Part shown: positions 2,201 to 62,408 of the stretch, in pieces
How positions within the stretch are numbered: position 1 is the first letter of the stretch
How the letters are laid out: each line of letters opens with the position of its first letter
Virus record (IMG/VR): IMGVR_UViG_3300046007_014300
Span: 5,292-69,291 of that record
DNA from: a virus
DNA: 64,000 bases
Direction: 5' to 3' (one strand)
Program-made: the position numbers and the translations under genes
The notes under the pieces: model-generated
What the model saw: the letters and a program-made list of their open reading frames with translations, nothing else
Told to the model about the DNA's origin: nothing
The model's database searches: none

Positions 2201-3625
2201 ATGCAGCGGGTCTTTGGTGCAATTGAGGCCCAACTGGACCGCATCGATGCTCGCCTAGGTGCCCGCAAGGCACGAGCGCCTGGCCAACTGGATCTGTTCG
2301 GCGGTGGCGCCCAAATTGACATGACGATGCCTGGCCAGGCTCCCAACAGCGGCCGGAACAGCCAGAAGCCCCCGGCGGTGGGCCGGGCGGCCCGCGGCGC
2401 AACCGCACGAGAGGGCAAGCCTTGCGGGGATGGTCACATCTCTGCGGGCCTCACCTGCCACAAATCAGGCAGTGCAGCGACACCAGACGCCCAAACACCA
2501 CCCAAGGGGCCAGCCTCCGCTCCAGCCACGCCAACAGCAGGGGAGGCGGCCCAGGGCAACACCAGCGCCGAGGCCTCTCCAGGCAGCGGTGCTGCCACCA
2601 GCTACGCCAGCCCAGCAGACCTCAGCTACGAGCTTGCCCTGGATGCCCACAGAGGCACTTCCTTTGACCCGGAGAAACGAGCCAGATCACACCAAGAGGA
2701 TTACGCCGCTCATCTAAACAGCCTCTACGCACGACTGCAGGAGTCGGCTGAGTCACCGGAGCAAAGAGCGATCTTGGACGCCGAGATGAAGGCATACAAG
2801 GATGGCTACACCAAGCGCTATACCGCCTGGCTGGGCGCAAAAAGCCGGATTGTGAGCCCAATGATCGCCGGGCCCAGCAATTTCCCGGTGCGGCGCATGG
2901 AGAAGGCAAACCGTGCTGAAGATGTGAGACGGCGCGAGCTGGAGGATTTCACCACCAGGGCCCAAAGCAGCATCTATCGCAAGCTGCAGCGTGGCCGCAC
3001 TCCAGAGGCCGCCCACGCCCAGGAGCTGGCCATGGTCGCCCGCAGCATCGATAGAAGCATCACCTGGACAAGGGAAGCGGAATCGGGGCGCACGTTTTAC
3101 GACCGGTCGTCAGCGGCGGCCTCGATTTCGGGCAAAATAAGCCGCTTGGCCAAAAACGGCCAGGTGGAGCTAGTGCGTGACCTCCTCGACCACCTAAGAG
3201 ACCAACAGGACACGCTGCGCAAGCCATTGTTCACCCCCAGGCATTCGGTCTGGAACCTGGAGGAGACGGCCCGGCAACAACGGCTGGCAACAACCGCCAA
3301 AGCCGCCTCAGCAAAAGCCGGTGCAGCAGCAGCGGACTACAAAAGCGGTGAGATCGAGCGTGATTTCGACAACAACCGGGTCCGGATCCGGTTCCACAAT
3401 GGCAAGCCATCCGATGCCATCCGCAGCCAGCTGAAAAGATCTGGCTGGCGCTGGAGCCCCAGCAACAGCGCGTGGCAGCGCATGAACACCGAAAACAGCG
3501 TCTACGCGGCCAAGCGCATCCTCAAAGCTGCTGATGAAGAGCAAAAATCCCGTGGTGACAGCATTGAAGCAATCGAAAACAGACTGCTACGGCTGAGTGC
3601 AGCTAAATCAAAAGTTGCATGTTAG
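2201..3625 (+). CDS. Leader-module protein with DUF3560-like/polyvalent-protein domain
   Basis: Leader RIDA...PGQLDLF...GKPCGDGHISAGLTCHK; body motifs SPMIAGPSNFPVRR and KPSDAIRSQLKRSGWRWSPSNSAWQR resemble DUF3560-type mobile-element proteins. Confidence 0.7.
   Translation: MQRVFGAIEAQLDRIDARLGARKARAPGQLDLFGGGAQIDMTMPGQAPNSGRNSQKPPAVGRAARGATAREGKPCGDGHISAGLTCHKSGSAATPDAQTPPKGPASAPATPTAGEAAQGNTSAEASPGSGAATSYASPADLSYELALDAHRGTSFDPEKRARSHQEDYAAHLNSLYARLQESAESPEQRAILDAEMKAYKDGYTKRYTAWLGAKSRIVSPMIAGPSNFPVRRMEKANRAEDVRRRELEDFTTRAQSSIYRKLQRGRTPEAAHAQELAMVARSIDRSITWTREAESGRTFYDRSSAAASISGKISRLAKNGQVELVRDLLDHLRDQQDTLRKPLFTPRHSVWNLEETARQQRLATTAKAASAKAGAAAADYKSGEIERDFDNNRVRIRFHNGKPSDAIRSQLKRSGWRWSPSNSAWQRMNTENSVYAAKRILKAADEEQKSRGDSIEAIENRLLRLSAAKSKVAC
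2414..2464 (+). repeat. Dispersed repeat encoding GKPCGDGHISAGLTCHK (copy 1)
   Basis: 49/51 nt identical to 15083-15133; related copies near 15776, 17227 and 60348. Confidence 0.95.
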
Positions 3626-3666
3626 GATTGGGGCGCAATTGACCAGCTTTAGGCCAAAGCAAAAGG

Positions 3667-4047
3667 ATGTCAGACCGACAGACAGGCAGAACCACCGCAC
3701 AAATGAATGCTGCCTTACCCGGCGCGGTTTTTGTGTGGCTAAATAGCAACTTGTTCTACCCAAAGGCCCTAGCGGCAAAGTTGGGGCGTGATGACCTGGA
3801 GGTGCGCCCATTGTCATGGCTTACAGTGCGCAACACGAGGGGACGCAGATTCAATTACTCAGAGGTGGTCGTGGATCATGCTGTCCCGTTTGACAGCGAG
3901 CGCTATGCAGCGCTGAATATCTTGCTCACAACTGGTTGCAAAGTGTATGGAGCAAAAAGAGCCTTTTTGCAGCAAATAAATGATCAGTGTAAATACTCAA
4001 GACCGCTGCCTAGCCAGATACTAAATGAACTTGCCCACCAATTCTAA
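3667..4047 (+). CDS. Hypothetical protein (degenerate P-loop-like, RQTGRTT ... VVVDH)
   Basis: 126 aa ORF in co-directional run. Confidence 0.55.
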   Translation: MSDRQTGRTTAQMNAALPGAVFVWLNSNLFYPKALAAKLGRDDLEVRPLSWLTVRNTRGRRFNYSEVVVDHAVPFDSERYAALNILLTTGCKVYGAKRAFLQQINDQCKYSRPLPSQILNELAHQF

Positions 4048-4371: not shown

Positions 4372-4377
4372 GACGCC

Positions 4378-4674
4378 ATGGCACCAGTGGATTGGAGCAA
4401 ATATCCAGACGACTGGAAAGAGATCGCCCTCAATGTGAAGCGCCAATCGGACTGGGCCTGCGAAGGCTGCAAAACCCAGTGCCGGCGCCCCGGGGAGCCG
4501 TTTGTCACCCACCGGCTGACACTCACGGTCGCTCACATCAACCACATCGAGCACGACTGCCGGCCCGAGAACCTGGTGGCCCTATGCGCACCCTGCCACC
4601 TGCGCTATGACGGTGAGAGGCGCCGGCTGCAAAAGCGAGCGCTGGCACGCATTCAAAACGTAAAACAAACCTAA
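4378..4674 (+). CDS. HNH endonuclease
   Basis: CEGC ... LTVAHINH ... [14 protein letters not shown] zinc-HNH signature. Confidence 0.85.
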
Positions 4675-5567
4675 AATAATGATTCCTGAATGACTTGCTC
4701 ACCATCGTCGATCATGGCCATGCGACGCAGCTTGCCCATTGCCTTGTTGACGATGTTGGAAACCCGATCAGCAGTTGTATCAAGCATCCTGGCGATTTCT
4801 GTTTTAGGCAATTCATTTAGATACAACAGCTCAATTATTTCGGTTTCTTCATCTGATAGAAAAGGGAGCATTGCCGCCAGCCTCTCAAGCTGAAGAGCAT
4901 TTTCCAGCCGATCTTCCTCAATATCGACGCGGCTTTTGGGGCATGGCAAGACCTCTTCTAGGCAGCGCTTCTCATCAGGCAACAGGACTGATGTGCTGCC
5001 GCATTTTTTGGCGCGAGCCCCTATCCGAATGCGTTCCAACTGTTCCATACTTTTTAGCCCTGAAATCTCCAGCAACTCAGCATCCGTAAGCCGATTTGGA
5101 CTGGATGCGATATGGCGCTCGACCCTGAACAGCACCTCCAGCACATTGGTCGGGATGCGAATCGTATCCGCAGTTTCTGCCAGGGCGCGATACATCGCCT
5201 GTCGCACCCACCAATAGGCATAAGTGCCCAGGGTATAACCCTTGGTCGGATCGAACATCTCGACCCCGCGCTGCAAGCCGATTGCCCCCTCCTGGATCAG
5301 ATCCTCAAGGGGGAGGCCCATCCGGCAATACTTTTTGGCGACGGTGACGCACATCCTCATGTTTCCTGTCACCAACCGGTCTCGTGCCCGCATGCCTGCT
5401 CGCCGTATTGCCCCCGGCGCCGCGTCAGGGCCGCCAGGCCAATCCAGCCACTCTCGAACCTGCTGGCCCCTGAGCAGCTGCTCGGTCTTGTTTGGGATCG
5501 GATACCGGCCGAAATCGGCCAGCATGGCGCCGACCATTGATGATCTCTCGCCTGACCTGCTGGCCAT
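4671..5567 (-). CDS. Sigma-70 family RNA polymerase sigma factor (cyanobacterial group-2-like)
   Basis: Region 2 [40 protein letters not shown], region 4 HTH EIARML...[14 protein letters not shown]. Confidence 0.93.
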
Positions 5568-5703
5568 GGCCCCGCATCGCCGATGGTCGCCGCAAGCCTA
5601 CCGTCCATCCCGTCCAGGATTGGCGATGAAGTGCCCAGGCATTCAGGAGAATGGACGGGCGGCCTTAACCTGATCGAGCGCCTTTCGTAAAAGAGCAGGG
5701 ATT

Positions 5704-7710
5704 TTGGCTACCGACGGAATCGCTTTTGAGGAACGGTTTGACGGGGTATTGGTTAACACCCTGACCAGAATGGGCACCAGTCAGGACAAGGAGCGATACA
5801 CCGGTGTTGCAGCGCCGGAAATTCTGCAACCCGCTGACCTGGACGCTTTATACATAAACAACTGGCTCTGCCGGCGCATTGTCGACATCATCCCGCAGGA
5901 GACCACCAGGGCGGGCTGGGCCCTGACCCTGGGCACGGAAACCACCGATGCTGAGAAAAAGCGGTTTGATCGGCTGGTTGCGGTTGGCGAAGACATGGGG
6001 ATCCGCACCCATGTCAAGAAAGCCATGCGGCAGTCTCGCCTTCATGGTGGCGCGGCGATCATCATGATTTTGGACGACAACACTCCCATCGATGAGCCTG
6101 TCAACCTCAAGAAGCTACGGGCCATCAAGGGGCTACATGCCATGGATTGCCAACGGATTTGGCCGGCAGCGGGCTGGAGCGGTGTAGGCGAACCTGACCT
6201 TTATCAAATGCAAATCAATCGAGATGAAGATTTGCGGAAGATTGGGATGAAAGATCAATTACTGCATGTGCCTATCCATCGCTCAAGGCTGCTGCGTTTT
6301 GAAGGGGACGATGCTCCGTACAGCTACAAAAGTCACTTTAAGTGGTGGGGCATATCCGTATTGCAGTCCGTTTGGAATGTATTCAAGCGCTATGAAACAG
6401 GCCAAGCATCAGCCGCCAACATCCTTAACGATTTCAGCCTTTATGTGCAAAAAATCAAGGGTTTAAAAGGCATGGTTGAGCAAGGGAAAGGCGACTTTGT
6501 GGCCAATCGGTTGTCACTGAACGCGCTGATGCGTTCAGTGATCGGCGGGATCGCCCTGGACGCTGATGGCGAGGAGGCCTCGTTTCTGACCCGTTCGGCC
6601 GCCGGGGTCGATTCGATCATCGAAAGACTCAAGGATGAGGTGCAGGGGGCAAGCCGGATCCCCCATACCAAGCTTTGGGGCAGCTCCCCATCGGGGTTAG
6701 GGGCCACTGGGCAGTCCGAGAAGTCGGATTTTGCGCAGGAAGTTCACATGCTCCAGGAGGACCACCTGGATCGGGCGCTGCGGCAGTACTACGAAACCCT
6801 GGCCGCCTGCTCAACCAATCGGGCAGCAATGGAATTGCCGGAGGATTGGCAGATTGATTTTCACAGCACCATCACCCTTTCCGACCTGGAAGAGGCCGAG
6901 CTACGGGGCAAGGTGGCAACGGCCGACAGCCAGAACATCCAGTCAGGTGTGTTGCAGCCCAACGAAGTGGCCTTGGCGCGTTTTGGCGGGGCCAAGTTCT
7001 CGATGGAAACCACCCTGCTGGACCGCGAGAAGAATGGCGCGATCAAACAGGATCCCCAAAACCTGCCACCACCCACTTTTGGTGGTGACCTGGCCACTCT
7101 GCCCGGCGAGGCCATTGGCCAGGGCCAGGGCCAGCAGCAGGCCCCCCGGGGGGACAGCGGGGACGAACGCGACGACGGTTGCTGCCGCCCCTGCGACGCC
7201 GCCACCGCCAGGGGGAAGCCCGCCACCTGCAACGACGGCGCCGTCGACGGCCAGCAGCAGGCCGATGACCAGCTGGAGGGGTCGTTGCAGGTGGAGGGCT
7301 TTCCCCTCCAGCAAGCGGCGGCCGCCGAGGCCCACGCCAAGGCGATCGCCAGGGCAATCGCGCAGGACAAGCGCCGCAAGGGCCGCGGCCGGCGGCCCGG
7401 GGTACGGGCGGACGGCAGCCGGGTGACCGGTCGGAGGGTGGTGGCCGGCGTGCCAGTTGACGTCCGCATCGATGGCAGCGCCACCCTGGTCGGACCCTAC
7501 GGGCAGGCCCTGGCTCTCGAAGCGGCAGTGGGCTTTGACTGCAGCGGGCTATGGGAGGTGCTCAGCCCAGCCGGCCAATGGACCGCCGTGGTGGGAGTGG
7601 AAGACCAGGCCATGGTGGTGGCCGCCGCCGGCCCGGGTGCCCGGGTGCGCCGCCTCGATGGCATCGACTTGCTGGCGATGGGGGTCCGATGCGACAGCTA
7701 TGAGCCATGA
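5704..7710 (+). CDS. Portal protein (DUF1073 family) with ~200 aa C-terminal extension
   Basis: LYINNWLCRRIVDIIPQETTRAGW, IHRSRLLRF, WGISVL, ASRIPHTKLWGSSPSGL motifs; followed by F-like head gene; TTG start uncertain. Confidence 0.87.
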   Translation: MATDGIAFEERFDGVLVNTLTRMGTSQDKERYTGVAAPEILQPADLDALYINNWLCRRIVDIIPQETTRAGWALTLGTETTDAEKKRFDRLVAVGEDMGIRTHVKKAMRQSRLHGGAAIIMILDDNTPIDEPVNLKKLRAIKGLHAMDCQRIWPAAGWSGVGEPDLYQMQINRDEDLRKIGMKDQLLHVPIHRSRLLRFEGDDAPYSYKSHFKWWGISVLQSVWNVFKRYETGQASAANILNDFSLYVQKIKGLKGMVEQGKGDFVANRLSLNALMRSVIGGIALDADGEEASFLTRSAAGVDSIIERLKDEVQGASRIPHTKLWGSSPSGLGATGQSEKSDFAQEVHMLQEDHLDRALRQYYETLAACSTNRAAMELPEDWQIDFHSTITLSDLEEAELRGKVATADSQNIQSGVLQPNEVALARFGGAKFSMETTLLDREKNGAIKQDPQNLPPPTFGGDLATLPGEAIGQGQGQQQAPRGDSGDERDDGCCRPCDAATARGKPATCNDGAVDGQQQADDQLEGSLQVEGFPLQQAAAAEAHAKAIARAIAQDKRRKGRGRRPGVRADGSRVTGRRVVAGVPVDVRIDGSATLVGPYGQALALEAAVGFDCSGLWEVLSPAGQWTAVVGVEDQAMVVAAAGPGARVRRLDGIDLLAMGVRCDSYEP

Positions 7711-9098
7711 GCATTGACCGTCGGCTGGAGCTCCAGCAGCGGCTAAGCGACGAACTGCGGGGCCTGGAGGATGAAGCGATCGGGCGGATCGGTCGCGTCT
7801 TCGAGGGGGCCCTGCGGGAAACGGTCGCACGCATTTTTGCGCAGCTCGATGGCATCGCCGCCCAACCCGCCTATGACCCAAAGACCACCCCAGGGGCGTT
7901 TTTGGGATCCACCCCCGAGGGGCAGGTATCCATCGATCCGGGTTTGAAGAATCAAGCCCAGCTGATCCTGCAGGGGCAGCTGCTCCAAGATCTGCGCCAG
8001 ATCGTCGATTCGATGCAGCTCTCCCCCCGGCGGATAGAGCGGCTGGAGGCAGAACTGAAAGCCCTGTTCGATCGGGCCCAGGGACTGGGCAGCGAATATG
8101 CCCTCCAGATCACCGGGGCAGAACTCGAGCCCTCCCTGGCGGTGCTCTCCCCTGAGGGGCAGATCGAGCGGCTGCCAGGCCAAGGCCAAGGCCAGGGCCC
8201 CGCACCGATCGAGATGCCATCGGCGCCAGATCGGGGGTACCAGGGTGGGCAACGGTTGAGCCGGCTCTTCGATCTCAGCGGTGCGGTGATCGCGGCGGAA
8301 CGCGATTTCAAGAGCCTGTCCGAGAACTACGCCAAAGAACGTGATGCGGCCTCCGATGAGCACGTCAGGGCGTCAAAGGCTTACTACGCCAAGTGGTGGG
8401 CTGAATGGGGGGAATCGGTGTCATTTGAGACGGCGCGCCAGATGGCCCAGGGCCCCGATCCCCGGGCGCTGAAGGCCAAGCTGCGGGAGAGGATCCCAAC
8501 CATCAACGAGGCCTTCAAAAACCGGGCGGAAACGATCGCCCGCACCGAAACCTTGATGGCATCTGGCGAGGCCCAAGAGCGGATCTACCGCCGGCTGCGG
8601 GTTGGCTTTGTGCAATACCTGGCGACGCTTGATGACCGCACCTGCGAGTTCTGTGCGCCCCGATCCGGCTGCATCTACTGGATTGGTGGGGTGAGAACCC
8701 CGATCCATCCGAACTGCCGCTGCGGCGAGAGCCCGATCACCTTGGAATCGCTGGTGATCCAGAACAGCATGGCGAAATCGCCGGAGCAGACCTGGGAGGC
8801 CGAGTTCCAGGCCCATGCGGCGGCCACCATGGCCTATTTCCGGGCGGCCGCCGGCGCCGATGCGGTGCCCCGGCCGGTCGGTGGGCCCGGGGACATGCGG
8901 GGCACGTCTGCTGACTACCCCTTGATGGAGCGCAAGGGCCTGCCGCAAAGCGTGGCAAGGAAAGCCTTGAGCCAAGATGACCCACTGAACCAGGCCGCGC
9001 GCGATTGGCCAGCTGGTGACCCGGTGTGGTGCCCGCGGCGAGGATGGCTGGACCAGCAGGCCAGGGCGGCCTATGAGGCAATTTTGAGATCGGTTTGA
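7707..9098 (+). CDS. Minor head morphogenesis protein (Mu gpF/SPP1 gp7-like)
   Basis: RAETIARTE, ATLDDRTCEFC, PIHPNCRC motifs; ATGA overlap with portal. Confidence 0.9.
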   Translation: MSIDRRLELQQRLSDELRGLEDEAIGRIGRVFEGALRETVARIFAQLDGIAAQPAYDPKTTPGAFLGSTPEGQVSIDPGLKNQAQLILQGQLLQDLRQIVDSMQLSPRRIERLEAELKALFDRAQGLGSEYALQITGAELEPSLAVLSPEGQIERLPGQGQGQGPAPIEMPSAPDRGYQGGQRLSRLFDLSGAVIAAERDFKSLSENYAKERDAASDEHVRASKAYYAKWWAEWGESVSFETARQMAQGPDPRALKAKLRERIPTINEAFKNRAETIARTETLMASGEAQERIYRRLRVGFVQYLATLDDRTCEFCAPRSGCIYWIGGVRTPIHPNCRCGESPITLESLVIQNSMAKSPEQTWEAEFQAHAAATMAYFRAAAGADAVPRPVGGPGDMRGTSADYPLMERKGLPQSVARKALSQDDPLNQAARDWPAGDPVWCPRRGWLDQQARAAYEAILRSV

Positions 9099-9109
9099 TC
9101 AAGTACCCG

Positions 9110-12125: not shown

Positions 12126-13100
12126 TTGACACCAAGAGGAACACCAGTGGATGTCAGGCAGGAAACAGCGTCGCTCGTCAAGTCAATCATTGACGAGCTG
12201 ATACATGAAAGTGTTCAACTGCTAACCCTTAACCTAGTTAGGTCAACGGGGCAAATTACAGGCCGCTTCCGTGCTGGACGGTTGGTCTACGACTACAAAA
12301 TTGCTGGTGACAATGTTGCCTATACTCCAATCGGTGGCAGTGAGCGAAAAGATTCAGCCGTTTGTTTAAACTTTAGCAGGGAAACAAGTCAGAGACTGGC
12401 TTCTCGTGCTTATATCATGGGTTTGCGTGATTGGAGTAGCACCCGAGCTGATGCTTGGCTGTGCGCAAAAAGAACTGATGGACCCAAAAAATGTGTAAAG
12501 GGAACAGCGTGTGGCAACAGCTGCATCGCCAATGGCAGAACGTGTCGGATTAAAGGCAATTCTCAAAAATTGACGCAACTAAAAGCTTTACTGGCCTTAC
12601 CGGCAGCAGGGCAAAGTAGTGGTAGTGTTACTAACACCAAGCAAGGGTTTACGAAGAGTCAAACTGGCGGGAAAGTCAAGCCGGAGTCCATAGCCAAACT
12701 AAAAAGTCCTGTACTCAGGTATTGGGATGTAAAAAGCGTGCAGGAACTTGCCCGAAACAAGCTTTTCAAAATGGCAACGGCGGGTGATGAGCTTGATTTT
12801 AAGGACCGTGAGACTTGGGCAAGGTTACATCGTCAGTTTATTGGCGTGCCAAAATCAGAACAAAACCAGCCAGATGGACCAACCGTAATTCGCGGCCTTG
12901 ATGTACTTAAGCAATTCCGTCCATGGTACATATTTGACTTAGATCCAAAAACAGCAACGACTACAGATGTAAAGCGAGCTTTTATACGCTTAGCCAAGAC
13001 TCATCATCCCGACCATGGCGGCAACCCAGAAGTTTTCCAGAGACTCAAGGTAATGCGCGACTCAATGTTGGCATTGATGCCATCTAAAAACGCAAAATGA
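12126..13100 (+). CDS. Leader-module protein with C-terminal DnaJ (J) domain
   Basis: Shared beta domain, CVKGTACGNSCIANGRTC knuckle, C-terminal VKRAFIRLAKTHHPDHGGNPEVF with HPD motif. Confidence 0.8.
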   Translation: MTPRGTPVDVRQETASLVKSIIDELIHESVQLLTLNLVRSTGQITGRFRAGRLVYDYKIAGDNVAYTPIGGSERKDSAVCLNFSRETSQRLASRAYIMGLRDWSSTRADAWLCAKRTDGPKKCVKGTACGNSCIANGRTCRIKGNSQKLTQLKALLALPAAGQSSGSVTNTKQGFTKSQTGGKVKPESIAKLKSPVLRYWDVKSVQELARNKLFKMATAGDELDFKDRETWARLHRQFIGVPKSEQNQPDGPTVIRGLDVLKQFRPWYIFDLDPKTATTTDVKRAFIRLAKTHHPDHGGNPEVFQRLKVMRDSMLALMPSKNAK

Positions 13101-15709
13101 CGCCAGAAAATAATAGAACAGTCCATCAGCATCGTTCTGGATTCAGGCGGATCGAAACCCGCATGGCGCGGCTGGACGGTGCGACTGCCGCCATGGCGGC
13201 GATTGATCCGATCACGGCGCCACTGACGGCGGTGCTGGCCGCATCGCTGCCTGGGGCGGCCGTTTTGAGCTGGGACCGGCAGCACGCCCCCCAGGGCCAA
13301 AGCCTCACCGGGCGAGTGGCGGCAGCTGGGCTGGTTTACCAGTTTCGCGTCGATGGCGAAGCCGTGCGGTTCCGCCCAGCCTGGGATGTCGAGACCGATG
13401 CAACCTGGGCGGCGAGGTCTGAAGGATTTCTGGCGGCCCGGGGCCACCGCCTCGATTTCCGTGACACCCGAGCCAAAGGCAAGAGCGCCAGCAAGCGGCG
13501 GTGCACCACCGGCTACGGCTGCGGGGCCACCTGCATCTCAGTCAACAAGGAGTGCGTCATCAGGGCCGCCAGCGCCATCGGCAAGGAGCGGTTGCGGCGG
13601 CTGCAGGAGCTAGTAAGCCAGGGCGACCCAAATGCCGGGAAGGTGCAGGCGGCCGTGCAGGCAGGGCGCAATCAAAAGGCCAAAGGCCTGCAGGAGGGCC
13701 GGCAAGTGGAGCGGTTGCGGGCAATGCTGCGTGATCCGGCGGTTGCCCAGATGGTCCGCAGTGGCAAGGTGCCCGCAGCAACGGCCGCGGCGCCCGGCCC
13801 CGGCCTGGGGGGGGCCGGCCAGGGGGGCCTGGCAGGGACCGTGGCGGTCGTGGCGCCGGACTCCATCGAGGTGGATCCCAAGCGCTTCCAGTTCAAGCTC
13901 CACTCATCTGCCAGCGGAGAGGTTGGCTCCCTTGCCGGCATCAAAAAATGGGACGACAACCTCGCCGGGGTGATATCGGTGTGGCAAGACCCGGCCGATG
14001 GCAAGACCTATGTCGTGAACGGGCACAACCGCCTCGCATTGGCCAAACGGATGGCGGCAGAGTCCGTGACGATCCGGTACCTCAAGGCCGCCAATGCCAA
14101 CGAGGCCCGTGCGATCGGGGCCATGCAGAACATCGCCCAGGGCCAGGGCAGCAGCGTCGATGCGGCGAAATTCTTCCGGGATTCCGGCATCACCGATCAG
14201 GCGGCCGTTGAACGCGCCGGCCTCCCCCTCCAATCCGGCAAGGCCGCCCAGGGCCTGGGGCTGGCCCGGCTGCCCGAGTCGATGTTCCGTGCGGTCATTG
14301 ATGGCGAGCTTTCAATCAGCCGTGGCGCGATCATCGGCAATTCAGGGCTGAGCAAGGCCAAACAGGGCGAAATCGGCAAGCTGTTGCGGCAGCGCAAAAA
14401 CATCTCCGATGGCACCCTGGCGGAGTACGTCGAAAACCTGGCCGTCAGCGAGGCCAGCCAGCAGGGGGCCCTGGACATCTTCGGGGGGCAAGAAACGGTC
14501 GACAACGGCCTGGCCCGGGCGGAGCTCGCCAACAACCTGCGGCGCAAGCTGGCCCGGGAAAAATCGCTCTTTGCCACCGTCAGCAAAAGCCGCGCGGCCG
14601 AGGCCCTCCAGCAGAAGGCCGGCAACAAGATCAACCAACGGGAAAGCGCCGGGGTTGCCGCCGAGGCCGATCAGGTGCTCCGGGTGTTCAAGGAGCTGAA
14701 GGACAAGGCCGGCCCGATCGCCACCGCCCTCAACAGCGCCGCCAACCGCATGATGAAGGGCGACCCGGCCGCCCAAGTGAAGAAGGAGCTGGAGGAGCAG
14801 GTGATCGCCGCCATGCAGCTGGAGCTGGAACGGGCCGGCTTGCGCAAACCGAAGAACCTCGCCAACGAGGCACCCACGGCCAGCATGTTCGACAGCCTCA
14901 TCAGCCGGATCATCCGCCTGGATGCTCGCGCCCGAACCACCCCGGGCCAGCTGCCCTTGATGGCCGGTGGCGCCCAACTCGATCTGGGCATGCAGCGTGG
15001 CACCACCACCAGCCAGGGTGGACGCAAGCCGCCGGCAGTGGGCCGGGCCGCCAAGGCCGCAGCTACCGGCAACAGCAAAGCCGGCAAGCCCTGCGGGGAT
15101 GGTCACATCTCTGCGGCCCTCACCTGCCACAAAGGAGGTGCAGGGGCCGGCAATGGGGCCATGGTCTACGCCGGAGAAAGTGATGACGGCAGCCGGTTTG
15201 TTGATGCCAAGCCGAACGCCGCGCCGTTGTTCAAGATCCCCCCTCGCCAGGAAACACCAGCAAGCCCAACGGCCAGCAAAACCCCGCTGGCCGATGCCAT
15301 GCGCCAGGCAATCCAGCAGATGAAGGCGGCAGACGTTCGGCAGATGTCGATGCTGGCCAACCAGCTGTTCGAATCCGAATGGAGCCTGGAGCGCAAAGGC
15401 AAATGGAAGGGCATGACCAAAGCTGCCGCCCAACAGGCCTACATCCAAGAGTTTGGCCAACAACTGCAGGAGGCGCGAGCCCAGCGCCAGCAGCAGGCTC
15501 AGCAAACTCAACCGGCAGGCAGTGGCGCGCCGATGAAGCTGTCCCAGCGCATGCGACAGCTGACTGAGGCGATGAAAGCGTCTGACGAGCGGATGGCAAA
15601 GCTGGGGGAAAAGATCTTTGAGCTGCGCCGCAGGACGATGGACCTGGATGAACCCTCGCAAGGTGAAATGCCAGGGGCCACTCGACGGGCACTGCCAAAG
15701 GGGAAATAA
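13097..15709 (+). CDS. Two-module leader polyprotein with ParB-like domain
   Basis: Beta domain + CTTGYGCGATCISVNKEC; ParB-like VDPKRFQFK...YVVNGHNRLALA; second leader RLDA...GKPCGDGHISAALTCHK. Confidence 0.8.
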   Translation: MTPENNRTVHQHRSGFRRIETRMARLDGATAAMAAIDPITAPLTAVLAASLPGAAVLSWDRQHAPQGQSLTGRVAAAGLVYQFRVDGEAVRFRPAWDVETDATWAARSEGFLAARGHRLDFRDTRAKGKSASKRRCTTGYGCGATCISVNKECVIRAASAIGKERLRRLQELVSQGDPNAGKVQAAVQAGRNQKAKGLQEGRQVERLRAMLRDPAVAQMVRSGKVPAATAAAPGPGLGGAGQGGLAGTVAVVAPDSIEVDPKRFQFKLHSSASGEVGSLAGIKKWDDNLAGVISVWQDPADGKTYVVNGHNRLALAKRMAAESVTIRYLKAANANEARAIGAMQNIAQGQGSSVDAAKFFRDSGITDQAAVERAGLPLQSGKAAQGLGLARLPESMFRAVIDGELSISRGAIIGNSGLSKAKQGEIGKLLRQRKNISDGTLAEYVENLAVSEASQQGALDIFGGQETVDNGLARAELANNLRRKLAREKSLFATVSKSRAAEALQQKAGNKINQRESAGVAAEADQVLRVFKELKDKAGPIATALNSAANRMMKGDPAAQVKKELEEQVIAAMQLELERAGLRKPKNLANEAPTASMFDSLISRIIRLDARARTTPGQLPLMAGGAQLDLGMQRGTTTSQGGRKPPAVGRAAKAAATGNSKAGKPCGDGHISAALTCHKGGAGAGNGAMVYAGESDDGSRFVDAKPNAAPLFKIPPRQETPASPTASKTPLADAMRQAIQQMKAADVRQMSMLANQLFESEWSLERKGKWKGMTKAAAQQAYIQEFGQQLQEARAQRQQQAQQTQPAGSGAPMKLSQRMRQLTEAMKASDERMAKLGEKIFELRRRTMDLDEPSQGEMPGATRRALPKGK
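15065..15133 (+). repeat. Dispersed leader repeat (copy 2)
   Basis: 15065-15099 identical to 17209-17243 (35 nt); 15083-15133 matches 2414-2464 at 49/51. Confidence 0.95.
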
Positions 15710-15712
15710 GCA

Positions 15713-16873
15713 ATGGCAACCGACGGCCGGCTGGCGCTGCTTGAAACGCGCATGGCCCGCGTAGATGCAGCCCGCGGTAAGCCGTGTGGCAAGAGCTTCA
15801 TCGTTTCGACCTACCGTTGTCACAAGGAAAAAGGTCCAAATCAAAGCACCAAAAGTGCCCCAGTGCTTACCCAGGCGGCCGATGGCGGCATCCTGTTAGA
15901 TGGACGGCCGCCTGAGAAGCAGATCGGCAAAGGATTCTTCGGCGACACATTTCTTTTCCCCCTGGCCGGCGGCGGTAAAGCCGTGGTGAAGGTTGATCGG
16001 ATCAGCAACCGCGACCCCCGCGACGGTCATCCCGACCCATCGCCCGAACATCGGATTAAGGCCCGCAGGCTGATGGTCGAAAACGAAGTGGCAAGCGCCA
16101 AACTGGCTGGCGAACTTGGGGTCTCCCCCAAATTGCTGAGTGAAATGCAAAAGCTGCCCGATGGGAGGTTTGCTTTTGCCTATGAGTTCACCCCCGGCAC
16201 CCCGTTTCAGGAAAACCACCACAGCTATGACCCAACCGCAGATGCGCAACGAATTCTGGGCAAACCGGAGAATATGCGGCGCTATCTCTATGGTGCGGCA
16301 GAAATCAGCAGGAAGCTAGGCGACGCAGGCCTCACCCATGACGATTTCCATGGCGCCAACTTACTGATTCAGGAGGACGGCACCCCAAAACTGCTTGACT
16401 GGGGAATGAGCAGCAGGGGCCCAAAAGGCAACTTCTTTCAGGAGACCACAATGCTTTACATGCTTTCTACCTGGGCCGGAGATCGACGAGGGATGGAAAA
16501 AAACGGCGGCCGGACTGGCAACGCCATCAGCAAAGTTGCTGATGAGGCACAGAAGAGTCTTTACGACGGCGAGAGGGCATCAAAAGATTTCATCACCGAT
16601 CTCAGGGCCGAGCGTTTCCTGGAACTGCCCCAGATTCCAAGCGACCAAATCAGACAGGCAATGATAAAGGCCAATGCCATTCACAGAGCCAACAAAGAGA
16701 AACCAGGTTGGACGTTTAGCGATGCACAAGCGGAAGTTGGTTTGGACGGCAAGATCACTGCCGCCGATCGGAAAGAAGCCGACAAGCGCCGCGATGATAT
16801 TTACGGGCCCCGTGGCCATCGAGCCTTCCGCCGCAAAGTGGATCTGCTGCTCAAACAGTTGGATCAGGTATGA
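15713..16873 (+). CDS. Leader-module protein with protein-kinase-like domain
   Basis: RVDAARGKPCGKSFIVSTYRCHK leader; IGKGFFG glycine loop, AVVK lysine, HDDFHGAN catalytic loop, DWG. Confidence 0.85.
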   Translation: MATDGRLALLETRMARVDAARGKPCGKSFIVSTYRCHKEKGPNQSTKSAPVLTQAADGGILLDGRPPEKQIGKGFFGDTFLFPLAGGGKAVVKVDRISNRDPRDGHPDPSPEHRIKARRLMVENEVASAKLAGELGVSPKLLSEMQKLPDGRFAFAYEFTPGTPFQENHHSYDPTADAQRILGKPENMRRYLYGAAEISRKLGDAGLTHDDFHGANLLIQEDGTPKLLDWGMSSRGPKGNFFQETTMLYMLSTWAGDRRGMEKNGGRTGNAISKVADEAQKSLYDGERASKDFITDLRAERFLELPQIPSDQIRQAMIKANAIHRANKEKPGWTFSDAQAEVGLDGKITAADRKEADKRRDDIYGPRGHRAFRRKVDLLLKQLDQV

Positions 16874-19516: not shown

Positions 19517-20839
19517 GTGAGCGAGGAATGGAGGTTTGACCGTGGCGCCATTAGCCCCAACTGGGAGAAAACCCCAGATGGGTTCTTGCGTGTCCGTGGA
19601 ACCTTCAGCCGCGTCGGTTGTCTCTCCTACAAGCGAGCGGACGGCAGCACCCAGGTCGAATATCGCCCGGAAGAAGAGGTTGCTCATCGCGACTCAATTC
19701 TTTCGCTTGGGGGATTGCCCGTCACCCATGAGCATCCCCCAGAGCTGCTGACCCCTGCCAACACTCGGCAGTATCAACGCGGATCGACTGGAACCGAAGT
19801 CAAGTACGACAACGGTTTTGTCAAAGGCGTCGTCATCCTCACAGACGCCGAACTCATCGCCGCCGTTGAACGCGGCGATGCCAGGGAATTGTCGATTGGC
19901 TATCGCGTTCAGATCGATCGCACACCAGGGGTTACGGCCACAGGTGAGCAATACGACGCGATCCAGCGACGCATCGTGGGAAACCATTTGGCGGTGACCA
20001 GGGAAGGCCGATCTGGGTCTGAGGTCCGCTTGCACATGGATTCCGCATTCTCGATCGATCCACCACCCCCCTCTCCGCCATCACCCCCCCCCTTGGAGGC
20101 CCATGAAATGACCACGGCTGTTGCAGCACTGTCCAGCGCCACCGCGACCTTGGCCACCGCCCTGGCGGGCCAAAGCCGCTCGGATGGCAAGCAACGCTCC
20201 ATGCCCATCCAGGAAATGGCGATGGATCCTGAAGATGACCCCGACGGCGACCCCGAGGAAACCTCTGACGAGGAGGGCATGGAACCCGACGAAATGCAAA
20301 AGCCCAAAAAGCCGATGGCCAGGCGTCGCCGTAGTGACAGCGTGGTGTCACGGCAGGAATACGAGCGGGTGGTGACCGCGCTGGCTGACAGCGAGCGGGC
20401 ACACCAGACGGATCTCGGCCGGATGGATGCGATCAGCGAACGGCTCGCCGAACTGGAAGCAGATCTGGACACCAGGCTCGATTCCAGCGAGATCGATCTC
20501 GATGCGCTGGTCACCGAAAAGCTGGAGCTGCTGGAGCGGGCCAATGAATTGGCCGGTGAACGAATCGACCATTCCGGCCTATCGCCGCGACAACTGCAAC
20601 TGGAAGCAATGCAGAAATCGGGTGTGGCGATCGAGCGCTTCGATAGTAAATCCGACGAATACGTGGCCGCGGCATTCGACACCTACTGCGATGCCAACAC
20701 CAGCCCCAACCGCCTGGACCACTCATCCGCTCTGGAGCTCCTGCTTGGCAAAACTTCGGGAGAGACCACTTCGGATCCCCGCGAAGGATATAAACAACGG
20801 CTTGAAAGTGCTTCTCGACAACCGTTGGCCAGCAACTGA
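19517..20839 (+). CDS. DUF2213 protein (putative prohead protease + scaffold)
   Basis: TPDGFL, PVTHEHP, ELSIGY, NHLAVTREGRSG; acidic coiled-coil C-terminal half; upstream of capsid genes. Confidence 0.88.
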   Translation: MSEEWRFDRGAISPNWEKTPDGFLRVRGTFSRVGCLSYKRADGSTQVEYRPEEEVAHRDSILSLGGLPVTHEHPPELLTPANTRQYQRGSTGTEVKYDNGFVKGVVILTDAELIAAVERGDARELSIGYRVQIDRTPGVTATGEQYDAIQRRIVGNHLAVTREGRSGSEVRLHMDSAFSIDPPPPSPPSPPPLEAHEMTTAVAALSSATATLATALAGQSRSDGKQRSMPIQEMAMDPEDDPDGDPEETSDEEGMEPDEMQKPKKPMARRRRSDSVVSRQEYERVVTALADSERAHQTDLGRMDAISERLAELEADLDTRLDSSEIDLDALVTEKLELLERANELAGERIDHSGLSPRQLQLEAMQKSGVAIERFDSKSDEYVAAAFDTYCDANTSPNRLDHSSALELLLGKTSGETTSDPREGYKQRLESASRQPLASN

Positions 20840-20875: not shown

Positions 20876-21433
20876 ATGGCCTTGATCGTTACTCCAAATG
20901 CAAGCTCCGTTGATGACGGGGCCCAGATTGCGTACCCTCTGGCTGCCGATCGCGGCCTCCCGGGCCAAATCGCCGACCTAACTGAGGCGGCGATTCGTGC
21001 GGGGCACAATGAAACTGCAGCCCGGATTCCGTTTGGGATTCCGGTGAGGCTGAACGGTTCTGGACTTCTCAACAACAGCTGTACTCCCCTCACGGCCGCC
21101 GGCGCCATATTGGGGCTCACTGCCCGGACTGCAGTCGCCGAACGCGATGGCCCCTCCGGTGCCTACGCCGATGGCATCCCGATTGGTGCCGCCGTCAACA
21201 TCCTCACCCGCGGGCCCATCTACCTGGAGGTGATTGAAGCCGTGGCAGTGACCGACAGCCTGCGCTACTTCAAGTCAGGTCCGAATGCCGGGAAGTGGGG
21301 CAAGACAGCATCCGCTGGCAATTCGCTGCTCCTGACCGCTGGTAACTGGGCGATTCGCAAGGCCGGCGCCGTAGGGACCGTCCTGCTTCTGGAAATCAAC
21401 ACCCCAGCGGCAATGAGTTTCACAGCCGACTGA
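20876..21433 (+). CDS. Capsid decoration/cement protein
   Basis: PGQIAD, IPFGIPV, VNILTRGPIY motifs; between DUF2213 and capsid. Confidence 0.7.
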   Translation: MALIVTPNASSVDDGAQIAYPLAADRGLPGQIADLTEAAIRAGHNETAARIPFGIPVRLNGSGLLNNSCTPLTAAGAILGLTARTAVAERDGPSGAYADGIPIGAAVNILTRGPIYLEVIEAVAVTDSLRYFKSGPNAGKWGKTASAGNSLLLTAGNWAIRKAGAVGTVLLLEINTPAAMSFTAD

Positions 21434-42846: not shown

Positions 42847-42853
42847 CGGAACC

Positions 42854-58339: not shown

Positions 58340-58437
58340 ATTGGATGCCCTACAAACGGCCCGAACCCATCATCCCACCGATTCTGACGGCAGGGCAGGC
58401 ACTGTTCCTGGCATCCCAGCAGCAGCTGCACCGCCAA

Positions 58438-59304: not shown

Positions 59305-59405
59305 CGGCCAATAAGGATCCTTCCTTGTACGGCGTCAAACACCAGTCTGCGCCTGGACCCAACTGGGTAAACTGGTTAACAGATTACACAGATAAGCTTT
59401 TCAAA

Positions 59406-60107
59406 ATGGCCGCCAAACGCCCTGCCGCCGCTGGTCAGCTGGCTCCCATTGCTAGGCCGGTGGAGGACGCAGAAACCAGTCCCAGAGCGCGAGTTGTCAC
59501 CCTGGCCGAGCTGACGCCAGACCCAAAGAACGCCCGGCGGCGCACGGAGCGCTCCCACGGGATGCTGTCCCGGTCAATCTCCGACTTCGGTGCGGCCCGC
59601 TCGATCGTGGTCGATGAGAACGGGGTGGTGCTTTGTGGCAACGGCACGGTGGAGGCCGCGGCGATCCACGGCATCAACCGGGTGCTTGTGATTCCGACTG
59701 ACGGCAACACCCTGGTGGCGGTGCAGCGGACCGATCTGAGCCCAACTGCAAAAACAGGCCTTGCCCTGGCGGACAACCGCAGCAGCGACACTTCGGAGTT
59801 TTCCGGGCGGATGCTGGCCGAGCTGATGGAGTCCGACCAGATGCTCGACATCAGCCCCTGGTTCACCGAAGACGAGTTCTCGGCCCTGCTGAAGGCTGAT
59901 GAGGTGGAGCCCCCCCTGCCTCCCGAGGAGCCGGCGGCAAAGTCAGGCCTGCAGATCACGATCGCTTTCGACGATCAGGAGGCCTTTGACCGCTTTGGGT
60001 CGCTGCTGGTCCAGCTGGCCGCCAGCCTGCCGGAGCTGGACGAGCTATCGGAGCGGCTGGCTCTGGTGATCGAGGAGCACCTCAACCGGCGAGACCGGCG
60101 AGGCTGA
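59406..60107 (+). CDS. ParB-like N-terminal domain protein
   Basis: LTPDPKNAR, SISDFGAARSIVVDENGVVLCGNG, LALADNR. Confidence 0.8.
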   Translation: MAAKRPAAAGQLAPIARPVEDAETSPRARVVTLAELTPDPKNARRRTERSHGMLSRSISDFGAARSIVVDENGVVLCGNGTVEAAAIHGINRVLVIPTDGNTLVAVQRTDLSPTAKTGLALADNRSSDTSEFSGRMLAELMESDQMLDISPWFTEDEFSALLKADEVEPPLPPEEPAAKSGLQITIAFDDQEAFDRFGSLLVQLAASLPELDELSERLALVIEEHLNRRDRRG

Positions 60108-60209
60108 GGTCCGCCTGCAGGCCCTGCAGATTTGAGCACCACCTGCAGGCCCTCCGAGTGGTGTGGCGTCAGCCCCAACCCGGCAGAATGAGCAACTGGC
60201 AATAACGCT

Positions 60210-62408
60210 GTGCCGCAGGGCCTTTTGGAACTTGAGGCCCGGCTGGCCCGGCTGGATGCCAAGGCCAAGCAAGCGGCCCCCGGGCAAATCGGTCTCGACT
60301 TTGGGTCCACGCCCGCACCACCGGCCGCCGCCGGTGCGGGGCGCCCGGGCAAGCCCTGCGGTGATGGCCACATCAGCGCGGGCTATTCCTGCCACAAGAA
60401 TGGCGGCGACGCCCCCCAGGGGCCAGCGGCTGGCGACACCTTCACATCGGATGAAGCCATTGCCCTGACGGTGTTGGCCAACAAGAAGCTGCGCAGCGAC
60501 AAGGCCAGAAACAAGGCCATGATCGATCTGGGTGTCAGGCCAGATACGGATTTCGTCGCCCTGGTCTTGGCGGCACGGGAAAAGCTGGGCGGGCCCGGCT
60601 GGTGGCAGGACGAAAGCGGGTGGAAGGACAAACTGCAGCGCTTTGCAGCTGCTGCAGGGATAACGCCCAAAGCCCCCGCCAAGAAGAAGCAGGAGCCAGA
60701 GCTGATCAGCTCGGCCGAGGTGAAAACCTCCGCCGACCAGCTGGCATTTGCCAAACAGCAGCGGGCTGCGGCCCGCAGCGCTGGCGACACCACGGGGGAA
60801 CAGGCCTGGGCTGATTTGCAGCGGGACCTCCAACGCCGCCGCCTGGGGGCGGCCATGGCCGGCAAGCGCCAAAGCCAAACGGGACTCTTCGGGGCCACCG
60901 ATTACGACCAGTCGCTGCCCCTCTTTGGTCGCAAGGATGGTGCCGATCCGGTTCGAGCTGAAATCGCTTCGATCGTCACGGCAGAACTCGAGCGCCAATT
61001 CCGCCAACCAATACAGCTGCTCTCCCTCAACAGCTCCAGGGCCACCGGTGCGGTCACCGGTCGCTTTCGCAGTGGCCAAATGGTCTTCGGCTATCAGATC
61101 AAGGGGGAGCGGGTCAGCTATCAGCCCATCGGCGCCGAGCTGGCGGGGCCCCGGGGTTCGGCGCCGGAGCGGCAGGACGCCATCAGGGGTTGGAGCCCAG
61201 CGCGGTTGCAGGCGTTTCTAGTTACAGCTGCGCGGATGGACAGCCCCAGGCCCGGGCAGCGCCGCTGCGCCACCGGCTATCGCTGCGGCAGCACCTGCAT
61301 CTCCCGCAGCAAACGGTGCGAACTCACCGGCAATGCCCAAGCCCTGGGCCGCCTGGGGGCCCTCGTCACCGGCGGCCAGGGCCAGGCCGTCACCAGGTTG
61401 GGCCGCAAGCTCCATGGGCCCAATGATCGCCCGGCCCAGCTGCTGCAGCGGCGTGATGCCCTCCTGGCCGAAGGCCGTGACCTGCTCTCCCGCCGCCGCG
61501 ACGACGGCAACGGCACCCTCATGGAATTCCCCACCCCAGAGGCGATGCGAGCAATCAGCACCCTGGGGCGCCGCATCCGAGAAGTGGACCGTGAATTGCA
61601 CGAGGCCTCAGGCGAAAACCCCAACCACCGCCGCTGGCAGAAGGGCACCCCGGGCCTCGAAGACGGCCGCACCGGTTTCCCTGCGATGCCCGACAGCCCC
61701 GGGCGCAAGCTCTACCGCGAGCAGCTGATCCAGGAGGCCCTCGCCAAGGGCACAACCGCCGGCAAGGGGGCCGGCGGTCGCAAGGTGGCCATCGTCATGA
61801 TGGGAGGGCCCGCTTCGGGCAAATCAAGCCTCCTGGCCAAGGTGATGGCTGACACCACCGGCTATGTAAAGGTCGATCCTGATGAAGTGAAGGATCGGCT
61901 GCCCGAGTTCGCCTTGGCAGTCGCCAATTCCGACAAGCTGGCCGCGGCGAGAGCCCACGAGGAATCCAGCACCGCCATCGACGAGAAGATCAAGGAGCGG
62001 GCAATTGAGGGCGGCTACAACGTCATGCTCGATGGAACGGGCAAAAACGGCAAGAAGTATCTGGCGATGGTGCAACGCCTCAAGGAACGGGGCTATGAGG
62101 TCCGGGTGATCATGCCCCACATCTCCGTTGCGGAGGGCGTGATGGCCGCTGAAAAGCGCGCCCATCGGTCGGGGCGCTTTGTTCCTTTGGATTTCATCCG
62201 CCAGGCCTATGAGGTGATCCCGCACAACTTCGAGCAGGTGGCCCGCTTAGCGGATTCGGCGGTGCTGGCCGATGCCGAGCCCGATCGTCTGGGGGCCCGA
62301 TCAATGAGCACCATCCAACGGTGGGAGAACGGGCGTATCGTTGAAGAGGACCAATCAAAATCACGCGCCTACAAACAGCAGTTTTTTGGAGGCAAAGCGC
62401 CGCGATGA
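60210..62408 (+). CDS. Two-module leader polyprotein with C-terminal zeta-toxin-like P-loop kinase
   Basis: RLDA...GKPCGDGHISAGYSCHK; beta domain; CATGYRCGSTCISRSKRC; GGPASGKSS, VDPDEVK, HEESS, LDGT, GRFVP. Confidence 0.85.
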   Translation: MPQGLLELEARLARLDAKAKQAAPGQIGLDFGSTPAPPAAAGAGRPGKPCGDGHISAGYSCHKNGGDAPQGPAAGDTFTSDEAIALTVLANKKLRSDKARNKAMIDLGVRPDTDFVALVLAAREKLGGPGWWQDESGWKDKLQRFAAAAGITPKAPAKKKQEPELISSAEVKTSADQLAFAKQQRAAARSAGDTTGEQAWADLQRDLQRRRLGAAMAGKRQSQTGLFGATDYDQSLPLFGRKDGADPVRAEIASIVTAELERQFRQPIQLLSLNSSRATGAVTGRFRSGQMVFGYQIKGERVSYQPIGAELAGPRGSAPERQDAIRGWSPARLQAFLVTAARMDSPRPGQRRCATGYRCGSTCISRSKRCELTGNAQALGRLGALVTGGQGQAVTRLGRKLHGPNDRPAQLLQRRDALLAEGRDLLSRRRDDGNGTLMEFPTPEAMRAISTLGRRIREVDRELHEASGENPNHRRWQKGTPGLEDGRTGFPAMPDSPGRKLYREQLIQEALAKGTTAGKGAGGRKVAIVMMGGPASGKSSLLAKVMADTTGYVKVDPDEVKDRLPEFALAVANSDKLAAARAHEESSTAIDEKIKERAIEGGYNVMLDGTGKNGKKYLAMVQRLKERGYEVRVIMPHISVAEGVMAAEKRAHRSGRFVPLDFIRQAYEVIPHNFEQVARLADSAVLADAEPDRLGARSMSTIQRWENGRIVEEDQSKSRAYKQQFFGGKAPR

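Follow-up and report, generated by a model that had tools for sequence, protein, structure and literature searches.

A module preceding exchangeable effector domains in the head-gene region of a cyanophage and its possible part in virion cargo

The subject of this report is a stretch of 64,000 nucleotides of viral DNA (the window), corresponding to bases 5292-69291 of the 69,291-bp IMG/VR virus record IMGVR_UViG_3300046007_014300, which has a completeness rating of 98%. Six open reading frames (ORFs) of the window, named here by their first position (o2201, o12126, o13097, o15713, o16870, and o60210), carry copies of a short module, an amphipathic helix ending in an R-Φ-D motif (Φ standing for a hydrophobic residue) followed by a cysteine knuckle, and different effector domains are found behind the copies. 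The module is repeated, precedes effectors which are swapped among related phages, and is encoded in a cluster of head genes, and its R-Φ-D motif is enriched in head proteins, among them a protease with a predicted fold like that of T4 gp21. The six ORFs can be read as phage polyvalent effectors in unbundled form, each domain being placed behind one module, and the module-bearing effectors are probably cargo carried into the host. For the whole chain of this reading, packaging included, we consider the chances to be evenly balanced.

One module in front of exchangeable effector domains

An earlier note on this DNA had described five copies of a module A and three copies of a module B. The six ORFs exist as claimed, with translations matching the description, and the five and three copies are present and align well. 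A six-frame scan for the knuckle pattern CG..[CHF]I.{5}C gave exactly 8 matches, every one within the six ORFs, and in 200 mononucleotide shuffles of the window the pattern occurred 0.02 times on average and once at most. Profile searches of the whole 69,291-bp record returned the same five A copies (as six stretches, o15713 being split in two) and three B copies, and no further ones in the 5,291 bases outside the window. The A-type knuckles (GKPCGxx[HF]Ix5C) are located at amino acids 72 of o2201, 663 of o13097, 22 of o15713, 120 of o16870, and 47 of o60210, each with R-[LIV]-D-A/G upstream, and the B-type knuckles (Cx5CGxxCIx5C) at amino acids 123 of o12126, 136 of o13097, and 353 of o60210, each with R-x-D upstream (RADA, RLDF, and RMDS). 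The module of o15713 is minimal and consists of helix, RVDA, and the knuckle at 15776-15820. Both composite architectures had been given correctly, B-effector-A-effector for o13097 and A-effector-B-effector for o60210, and in o13097 an additional N-terminal helix ending in RLDG was found; no function is assigned to the helical C-terminal region of this protein. The module copies are 68-93% identical over 56 nt at the DNA level, and those of o13097 and o16870 are 81% identical over 146 nt, which points to conservation at the protein level with some recent exchange. The C-termini of o2201 (3547-3625; …IEAIENRLLRLSAAK…) and o16870 (19006-19050, residues ~713-727; …GVRIDRFMAALE…) resemble leader helices and may be remnants of recombination at modules.

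The view of A and B as two unrelated modules had to be corrected, as helix and knuckle of both align in one core. This core is an amphipathic helix ending in R-[ILVM]-D-A, then the small knuckle (CHCH or CCCC), and in an alignment of both flavours (24 sequences, picked from 74 unique segments for a helix close upstream of the knuckle) the residues R, D, A, G, C, G, I, and C are invariant. Some related viral contigs even have an A-like helix (…LQHRLDAL…) directly before a B-type CCCC knuckle. In the A flavour a linker of variable length, carrying a PGQ[LM]xL[FL] peptide, lies between helix and knuckle; in the B flavour 14 residues invariably separate R-Φ-D-A from the knuckle pattern, and a conserved helix comes next. 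An optional, cyanophage-specific N-terminal addition to module B is the beta domain, for which the model (pLDDT 75) shows a four-strand sheet with one helix on it and two more helices behind. Foldseek found nothing for module B in the PDB at E <= 0.001 (best 0.23), and with VIA-align, run against 48,161 chains, the top Z was 5.2 (VirB8 and cystatin-like helix-on-sheet folds), too low to be meaningful. With no convincing solved relative from either program, a known fold for module B was dropped; its relatives among predicted structures (BFVD) are exclusively proteins of PaV-LD, CL131, and Nodularia phages. No relevant family was returned by Pfam (E <= 1) or NCBIfam (E <= 0.1) for modules in isolation or for knuckle-only proteins, and a known family for the knuckle was rejected. 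In the protein atlas a knuckle-only query returned unnamed Pseudomonadota clusters only, at <= 0.80, and a query with the N-terminus of o13097 no usable match. In three related loci (L027:10001-10411, L028:10001-10438, and L029:10001-10410) an in-frame stop follows the beta domain of module B (…YKPITNR*), and helix and knuckle resume in another ORF, which may mean that the gene is truly split or that the stop is read through.

The effector labels of the earlier note stood in part. Pfam confirms the zeta-like kinase of o60210 (Zeta_toxin, E 5.4e-26), the LPD1 domain of o16870 (E 1.9e-11, with the HEWGH motif visible), and the kinase of o15713 (APH/kinase, E 6.7e-6, which passes the Pfam cut-off). 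Support for the J domain of o12126 is weak, DnaJ staying under the cut-off at E 2.3e-4, with the HPD motif present. The regions called DUF3560-like in o2201 and ParB-like in o13097 have no Pfam match at E <= 0.1, and are recognized by PHROG only, the former by phrog_19458 (E 2.8e-20) and the latter by the C-terminal part of phrog_21 (E 6.5e-48). In its zincin region, o16870 shares 35% identity with a protein of Stx phages.

That the effectors are interchangeable behind a conserved tag, as had been proposed, is evident from near-identical relatives, in which deletions, insertions, and replacements occur at the modules. In four contigs with an o13097 homologue of 94-98% identity, the first 69-96 residues of o12126 are joined to residue 6 or 7 of o13097, a B-to-B fusion by which the first knuckle and the J domain are deleted. 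Two of these contigs are devoid of the kinase gene and one has a kinase which is only 34% identical; one of the four encodes a three-module protein of 1,543 amino acids with extra sequence and the third module between duplicated A modules. In more distant contigs a zincin of the o16870 type (43-47% identical) and also a kinase are found behind B-type modules, and a J domain forms the second unit behind a zincin. Effectors are thus interchangeable at the modules, since near-identical relatives swap them and the same zincin or kinase can stand behind A or B. Neither is the module always fused to one and the same downstream domain: among 82 module-bearing homologues a minority match any of 12 Pfam families, the most frequent of which reaches 6 of the 82 (DnaJ 6, APH 5, LPD1 4, Pkinase 4, Zeta_toxin 3, AAA_33 3, Peptidase_M90 3, ABC1 2, ATLF 2, ADPrib_exo_Tox 2, ART 1, RIO1 1), and no MuF or portal family was matched in this set.

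The earlier note had regarded the modules as leaders. The tag does precede effectors, but it is not restricted to the N-terminus and repeats internally up to 7 times. Out of 1.84 billion, 503 representative protein clusters were hit by a core profile at E <= 1e-3, 88 of these also at E <= 1e-10. Many of the homologues are long, multi-copy proteins of up to 3,641 amino acids with classic polyvalent-protein domains, in which up to 6 stretches per protein were found by profile and up to 7 by the knuckle regular expression (up to 5 knuckles in P0027 and P0030, 5 to 7 in P0068 and P0081). P0068 (3,278 amino acids) is a classic polyvalent protein, its knuckles at residues 100, 1077, 1396, 1663, and 2231 separating LPD1 with 2H, DUF2293, ART, InPase with NUDIX, and a C-terminal ADP-ribosyltransferase. 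The giant polyvalent homologues sit on contigs of 31 to 125 kb and were not found in IMG/VR. Among 391 non-redundant knuckle instances of the stored proteins, R[LIVMF]D[AGS] lies no more than 70 residues upstream of 118 of the 235 B-type and 76 of the 156 A-type knuckles. Among the remaining instances are bacterial proteins of small size, in which an N-terminus resembling a signal peptide is combined with two or three bare knuckles (…KNCxKGKPCGNSCISKxDVCHK…; P0113, P0115, P0130, P0135, and P0140-P0186). These match no Pfam or NCBIfam family; their sequences suggest a secreted Cys-rich repeat without a name that is akin to the knuckle of the phage. As bare knuckles occur in secreted bacterial proteins, the knuckle alone appears to be a more general mini-domain.

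The module is rare in host genomes. The strict B pattern was found in the genome collection at 6 loci in 3 metagenome-assembled genomes (MAGs), and the A3 profile hit 2 of 301 sampled genomes of the host order, both already known carriers; a prophage reservoir is therefore not supported. This rarity has a bearing on the idea that the six genes constitute a phage-borne polymorphic toxin system between bacteria, similar to that of MuF, in which the module would be a trafficking domain and immunity genes would be found nearby. A conserved N-terminal part with variable C-terminal enzymes would suit such a system, as would the occurrence of zeta toxin, ADP-ribosyltransferases, and ATLF-like zincins among the homologues. 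However, neither the six proteins nor the 82 homologues contain a MuF fusion, no small gene is seen consistently after each effector, the genes being tightly packed or overlapping, and the low frequency in host genomes argues against a resident prophage weapon. We consider this explanation to be very improbable.

R-Φ-D sites in head proteins and the DUF2213 protease

The motif R[LIVMF]D[AGS] is found 18 times in 72 greedily chosen ORFs of the window, compared to an expected number of 4.96. Sixteen of the 18 sites are located in three places: ten in the six-ORF family, three in a C-terminal extension of the portal protein, and three in the DUF2213 protein. In the C-terminal half of the latter, which is scaffold-like, the sequence G-R-x-D-[AS]-[IL]-x-E-x-L-x-E-L-E is kept across ten relatives, as is a second site, R-x-D-[STG]. 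The capsid protein of the window starts with M-A-I-R-N-D-A. In 8 of 9 relatives the N-terminus of the capsid protein reads M-x-x-R-Φ-D, and R-M-D or R-L-D is found near it in S-CBS4, PaV-LD, and CL131. The portal extension comprises 260 residues past the Pfam portal domain (window 6930-7710, residues ~410-668) with three R-[AIL]-D-G sites; it may be processed or interact with cargo.

By PHROG, the DUF2213 protein is a head maturation protease (phrog_530, E 7.9e-76). No solved relatives could be found by sequence. By structure, a model of its N-terminal domain (pLDDT 80) matches T4 gp21 (5jbl, E 4.6e-5, prob 1.00, TMq 0.56), and there is a weaker match to herpesvirus proteases. A literature search on DUF2213, judged from titles and abstract openings, yielded nothing evidently relevant. 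The protease itself opens with a conserved R-F-D (19517-19546), in which R6 and D8 are invariant and F7 is nearly so; at this place the proteases of PaV-LD and CL131 have R-L-D-A and R-F-D-S, respectively. In the model of module B, R-M-D is positioned at a helix end, ahead of a linker of low confidence. Taken together, the R-Φ-D shared by cargo and head proteins, the gp21-like fold of the modelled protease, and the precedent of T4 make it reasonable to infer that cleavage may take place after the aspartate of R-Φ-D.

Head-gene setting, the linker peptide, and competing explanations

Co-occurrence of the module with head genes, which had been suggested as a check, was indeed observed. Within the fetched flanks of module genes, portal, MuF, DUF2213, and capsid genes were found in 26 of the 27 viral contigs and at 5 of the 6 MAG loci; the module genes are placed there either between the portal and MuF genes or in the interval from MuF to the protease. 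In the window, four tandem genes (12126-19206) are placed between the MuF gene (7707-9098) and the DUF2213 protease gene (19517-20839), as had been noted, with 4-nt start/stop overlaps at two junctions (13097/13100 and 16870/16873) and three bases, with no overlap, at the third (15709/15713). Two cultured cyanophages have modules in their structural clusters, PaV-LD in at least six ORFs and CL131 in four, one of the latter encoding a 1,811-amino-acid protein with five knuckles. Most of these ORFs are found between the head genes and the tape measure gene, and ORF065R of PaV-LD is located upstream of the protease and capsid genes. Two module ORFs of PaV-LD were labelled by the depositors as 'virion structural protein' and 'minor virion protein'; the basis of these labels is not apparent. 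A literature search for virion proteomics of Nodularia phage 2AV2 returned nothing usable. According to a preprint, the LPD1/LPD5 polyvalent protein (2,811 amino acids) of Stx phage phi24B was detected in virions by proteomics.

Packaging is suggested indirectly by the head-cluster genes in 26 of the 27 contigs, by the concentration of R-Φ-D-[AGS] in cargo, portal tail, and protease-scaffold, by R-Φ-D in the capsid protein, and by the gp21-like fold. According to this reading, the module proteins would be made alongside the head proteins and taken into proheads, where the DUF2213 protease would cut after the aspartate of R-Φ-D, so that effectors would be separated from each other and the helix removed, comparable to the action of T4 gp21. 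The matured effectors would then enter the next host together with the DNA, and those with an A linker would dock on the sliding clamp of the host.

The last step is based on the linker peptide of the A flavour. Sliding-clamp-binding motifs fall into classes such as QL[SD]LF and QLxLxL, and A-linker peptides such as PGQLDLF, QMDLF, QMGLF, QLGLDL, and QLELGL fit them. Scored against the clamp-binding consensus, 47 of 76 A-type linkers and 0 of 118 B-type linkers contain a clamp-type motif, and 12 fit the strict form Q[LM]xLF. The complex of module A of o2201 with DnaN of Synechococcus elongatus, used as a stand-in for the clamp of the phage's host, was modelled with a score of 0.68, compared to 0.01 for the best of three controls; this mark is reached by 58 of 80 solved complexes and by 2 of 110 mismatched pairs, with runs agreeing in at least 21% of contacts and a partner pLDDT of at least 35. 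Confident contacts connect module residues 27-33 (PGQLDLF) to clamp residues 173-178, 247, 252, 327, 351, 353, and 367-373. The pocket occupied by the modelled peptide is bordered by clamp domains II and III and by the C-terminal tail, and we take it to be the canonical peptide pocket. Docking of the A-linker peptide on the clamp is thus supported by the model, and the resemblance of PGQLxL to a host clamp-binding motif points to action in the host rather than to loading. A more far-reaching proposal regards the module as a three-part label for virion cargo, in which the helix with R-Φ-D|A would serve for loading, the protease would cut, PGQLxLF would park the effector on the host clamp, and the knuckle would fold the junction or ride on the DNA. 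Labels would recombine to reshuffle clamp-docked enzymes for takeover or anti-defence, and the same grammar would apply to the giant polyvalent proteins of other large phages. In this full form the proposal appears doubtful.

A number of observations weigh against the effectors being packaged and processed in this way. Direct evidence for any module protein in a virion was not seen. The contigs all stem from one broad phage lineage with one family of head genes, and because they share one head module, the position of the module genes is largely inherited and is not independent evidence. The capsid protein of Pam3 is devoid of R-Φ-D, and the capsid site would cut off only six residues. The R-F-D at the N-terminus of the protease is modelled in a beta strand, so that it may be structural and not a self-cleavage site. 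The invariant R and D of the module could likewise be structural, the spacing in B being fixed at 14 residues. A helix-only profile, which still picks up five of the six family members (scores from 16.8 to 2.6), misses the DUF2213 protein with its scaffold among the top 25 window hits; the likeness to the scaffold is therefore limited to the tetrapeptide, and a scaffold-mimic helix beyond it was dropped as a candidate. The zincin of o16870, not the prohead protease, could be the processing enzyme. The score of the clamp model may reflect likeness to solved complexes, among which peptide-clamp complexes are well represented, so that passing the mark indicates likeness and not binding, and the fold of the partner is uncertain in the model. 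Against metal binding by the knuckle speak the A-type copies with F or Y replacing H, which leaves three possible ligands only, and the occurrence of the same knuckle in secreted proteins, where disulfides are as likely as metal.

A competing explanation is that the effectors are cytoplasmic and not packaged, the interval from portal to protease being an accessory hotspot, the module a generic joint for folding, oligomerisation, or nucleic acid contact, and the clamp motif a means of recruitment to forks in the same infection. In S-CBS4 this interval is occupied by glycosyltransferases, a methyltransferase, and an HNH gene and contains no modules, which speaks for a hotspot and also weighs against the cargo reading. 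Two of the six genes, o2201 and o60210, lie outside the interval, the knuckle occurs in secreted bacterial proteins unconnected with phage heads, the clamp-motif look-alike points to the cytoplasm as site of action, and neither a polymerase nor a sliding clamp is found among the window ORFs scanned. On the other hand, the effector types are those of polyvalent proteins, which are placed with packaging genes in the literature on these, the module genes are co-oriented with the head genes and partly overlap each other, R-Φ-D is common to capsid, scaffold, and portal, and in PaV-LD and CL131 the module genes are found between the head genes and the tape measure gene. On balance we regard this explanation as unlikely.

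A further alternative is that the module proteins are mainly structural ejection proteins of an internal core, which exit the capsid before the DNA and aid in crossing the envelope, with the enzymes assisting entry and the modules acting as assembly joints. Such a role is proposed for gp47, the virion-detected LPD protein, in the preprint on phi24B; in addition, a zincin homologue is found in most related arrays, and the genes of CL131 and PaV-LD adjoin the tape measure gene. This role is, however, normally filled by tail and tape measure, and the phage has a long tail of the lambda J type and a putative tape measure protein of 1,533 amino acids. Moreover, the cytoplasm is where J domains, protein kinases, zeta kinases, and ParB-like domains act, and the gene content differs between near-identical phages, unlike what would be seen for an essential structural part. 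We therefore think it quite unlikely that ejection is the main function of these proteins.

The features discussed are listed in Table 1. The window in addition encodes a lambda-J-like tail tip, an Erf-like protein, and a replication initiator. The ORF at 26900-31501 is taken as the tape measure gene, the sole support being a phmmer match to the annotated tape measure region of CL131 (E 5e-15). The sigma-70-family gene is kept at the same position in most related contigs. A free-standing ParB-like gene (59325-60107; phrog_620, E 3.4e-22) lies immediately 5' of o60210. Direct repeats of ~91-120 nt with 70-75% identity are present at 42962-43689, where two long ORFs overlap (42759-43850 on the plus strand and 42854-43873 on the minus strand, the latter with no PHROG match). 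Among cultured phages, Synechococcus phage S-CBS4 comes closest, its capsid protein being 44% identical, and a Cyanobium-type picocyanobacterium is the probable host, given the presence of related contigs in Cyanobium MAGs. One MAG bearing the title Sphingobacterium thalpophilum (G003, with loci L061 and L062) has cyanophage-type head genes and came back as the same order as the Cyanobium MAG G001; its title is probably wrong or the bin mixed.

Table 1. Module genes, module copies, and neighbouring genes in the window
Feature	Position	Strand	Description
Large terminase	139-1629	minus	
o2201 (474 aa)	2201-3625	+	Module A, then effector with PHROG 19458/6744 similarity
Module A copy 1 (o2201)	2201-2485	+	Helix ending RIDA 2240-2251; KPPAVGRAA; knuckle 2414-2458
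PGQLDLF, clamp-motif look-alike in module A of o2201	2279-2299	+	
Sigma-70 factor	4671-5567	minus	Between terminase and portal
Portal protein	5704-7710	+	Phage_portal_3
MuF-like minor head protein	7707-9098	+	Separate gene, not fused to any effector
o12126 (324 aa)	12126-13100	+	Module B with beta domain, then J domain
Module B copy 1 (o12126)	12153-12575	+	Helix, four-strand sheet, helices, RADA, CCCC knuckle 12492-12545
o13097 (870 aa)	13097-15709	+	N-terminal helix ending RLDG, B, ParB-like region, A, helical C-terminal region
Module B copy 2 (o13097)	13199-13576	+	Knuckle 13502-13555
Module A copy 2 (o13097)	14864-15151	+	RLDA 14915-14926; PGQLPLM; KPPAVGRAA; knuckle 15083-15127
o15713 (386 aa)	15713-16873	+	Minimal module A, then APH/protein-kinase-like domain
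o16870 (778 aa)	16870-19206	+	Module A, then zincin (HEWGH) and LPD1 domain
Module A (o16870)	17002-17289	+	RLDA 17062-17073; knuckle 17227-17271
DUF2213 prohead protease	19517-20839	+	Pfam and PHROG
Cement protein	20876-21433	+	Phage_cement
Major capsid protein	21469-22401	+	PF09950
o60210 (732 aa)	60210-62408	+	Module A, unknown effector, module B, zeta-toxin-like kinase
Module A (o60210)	60210-60419	+	Knuckle 60348-60392
Module B (o60210)	60942-61349	+	Knuckle 61266-61319

Comparison with known systems

Phage-delivered multi-domain effectors, polymorphic architecture, and protease-processed capsid cargo are already known. Apparently undescribed, in the main texts and family databases searched, are the module with its grammar, its link to the head module of the DUF2213 type, and the linker with the clamp motif, and in the literature on cyanophage polyvalent proteins no title or abstract opening names the module. 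Except for T4 and its giant relatives, little is known of the way in which cargo not fused to a head protein is loaded, processed, and directed. Here the module offers a sequence grammar that can be tested. Its candidate elements are a cleavage code for the DUF2213 head proteases, which are widespread, a helix for loading, and a peptide for docking on the host clamp. If the cargo reading is true, virion cargo would become predictable from sequence, the exchange of effector sets would be explained, and a tag for packaging foreign proteins into cyanophage capsids would be at hand. If packaging fails, the finding shrinks to a new linker domain in accessory genes.

The closest resemblance is to the polyvalent proteins, whose genes are described by Iyer et al. 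2017 (PMC5512222) as lying beside packaging genes and for which delivery with the DNA and proteolytic processing have been proposed; in the main text of that paper knuckle, cysteine, and zinc ribbon have 0 occurrences. Like polyvalent proteins, o13097 and o60210 each contain two module-effector units, and homologues contain up to 7. LPD1, zincin, and zeta-like kinase in the window, and ADP-ribosyltransferase, NUDIX, InPase, and 2H in the homologues, are also common ground, as is the location of the genes next to head genes. Unlike in bundled polyvalent proteins, o2201, o12126, o15713, and o16870 have one unit each, so that what is one string there is here in part distributed over single genes, with a module at the start of each. 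P1 DarA and DdrB gave no match among the Pfam and PHROG hits listed, a dedicated profile search with the P1 proteins not being part of the analysis. The MuF toxins of temperate phages, as outlined by Jamet et al. 2017 (PMC5576092), have an N-terminal MuF head protein and a variable toxic C-terminus. A conserved N-terminal part, variable C-terminal enzymes, and the phage head region are shared with them; in the window, by contrast, MuF is a gene of its own, and Phage_Mu_F matches neither the six proteins nor the 82 homologues.

For the processing, T4 provides the nearest model. In the account given in PMC9026906, T4-type proteases cut after a glutamyl residue and strip capsid-targeting propeptides from internal proteins and Alt; these propeptides target the cargo to the head, and the same protease site is present in capsid and scaffold proteins. 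The cyanophage resembles this system in having a protease of gp21-like predicted fold in the same head module. A candidate counterpart of the T4 site is the R-Φ-D common to cargo, capsid, and scaffold. The cyanophage differs from the T4 system in that there is no sequence similarity to the T4 internal proteins, and in having R-Φ-D in place of the Glu site. Unlike the T4 propeptide, the module is internal and repeated, with a knuckle and a clamp-motif look-alike. In contrast to known clamp motifs, this look-alike is found in the linkers of phage effectors, adjoining a putative processing site. In polymorphic toxins, pre-toxin motifs such as VENN, PT-TG, and PT-HINT mark the boundary of the recombining toxin domains. 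The module is likewise a short conserved element at the exchange boundary of variable domains, with another sequence, in a phage setting, and with a proposed cut by the capsid protease.

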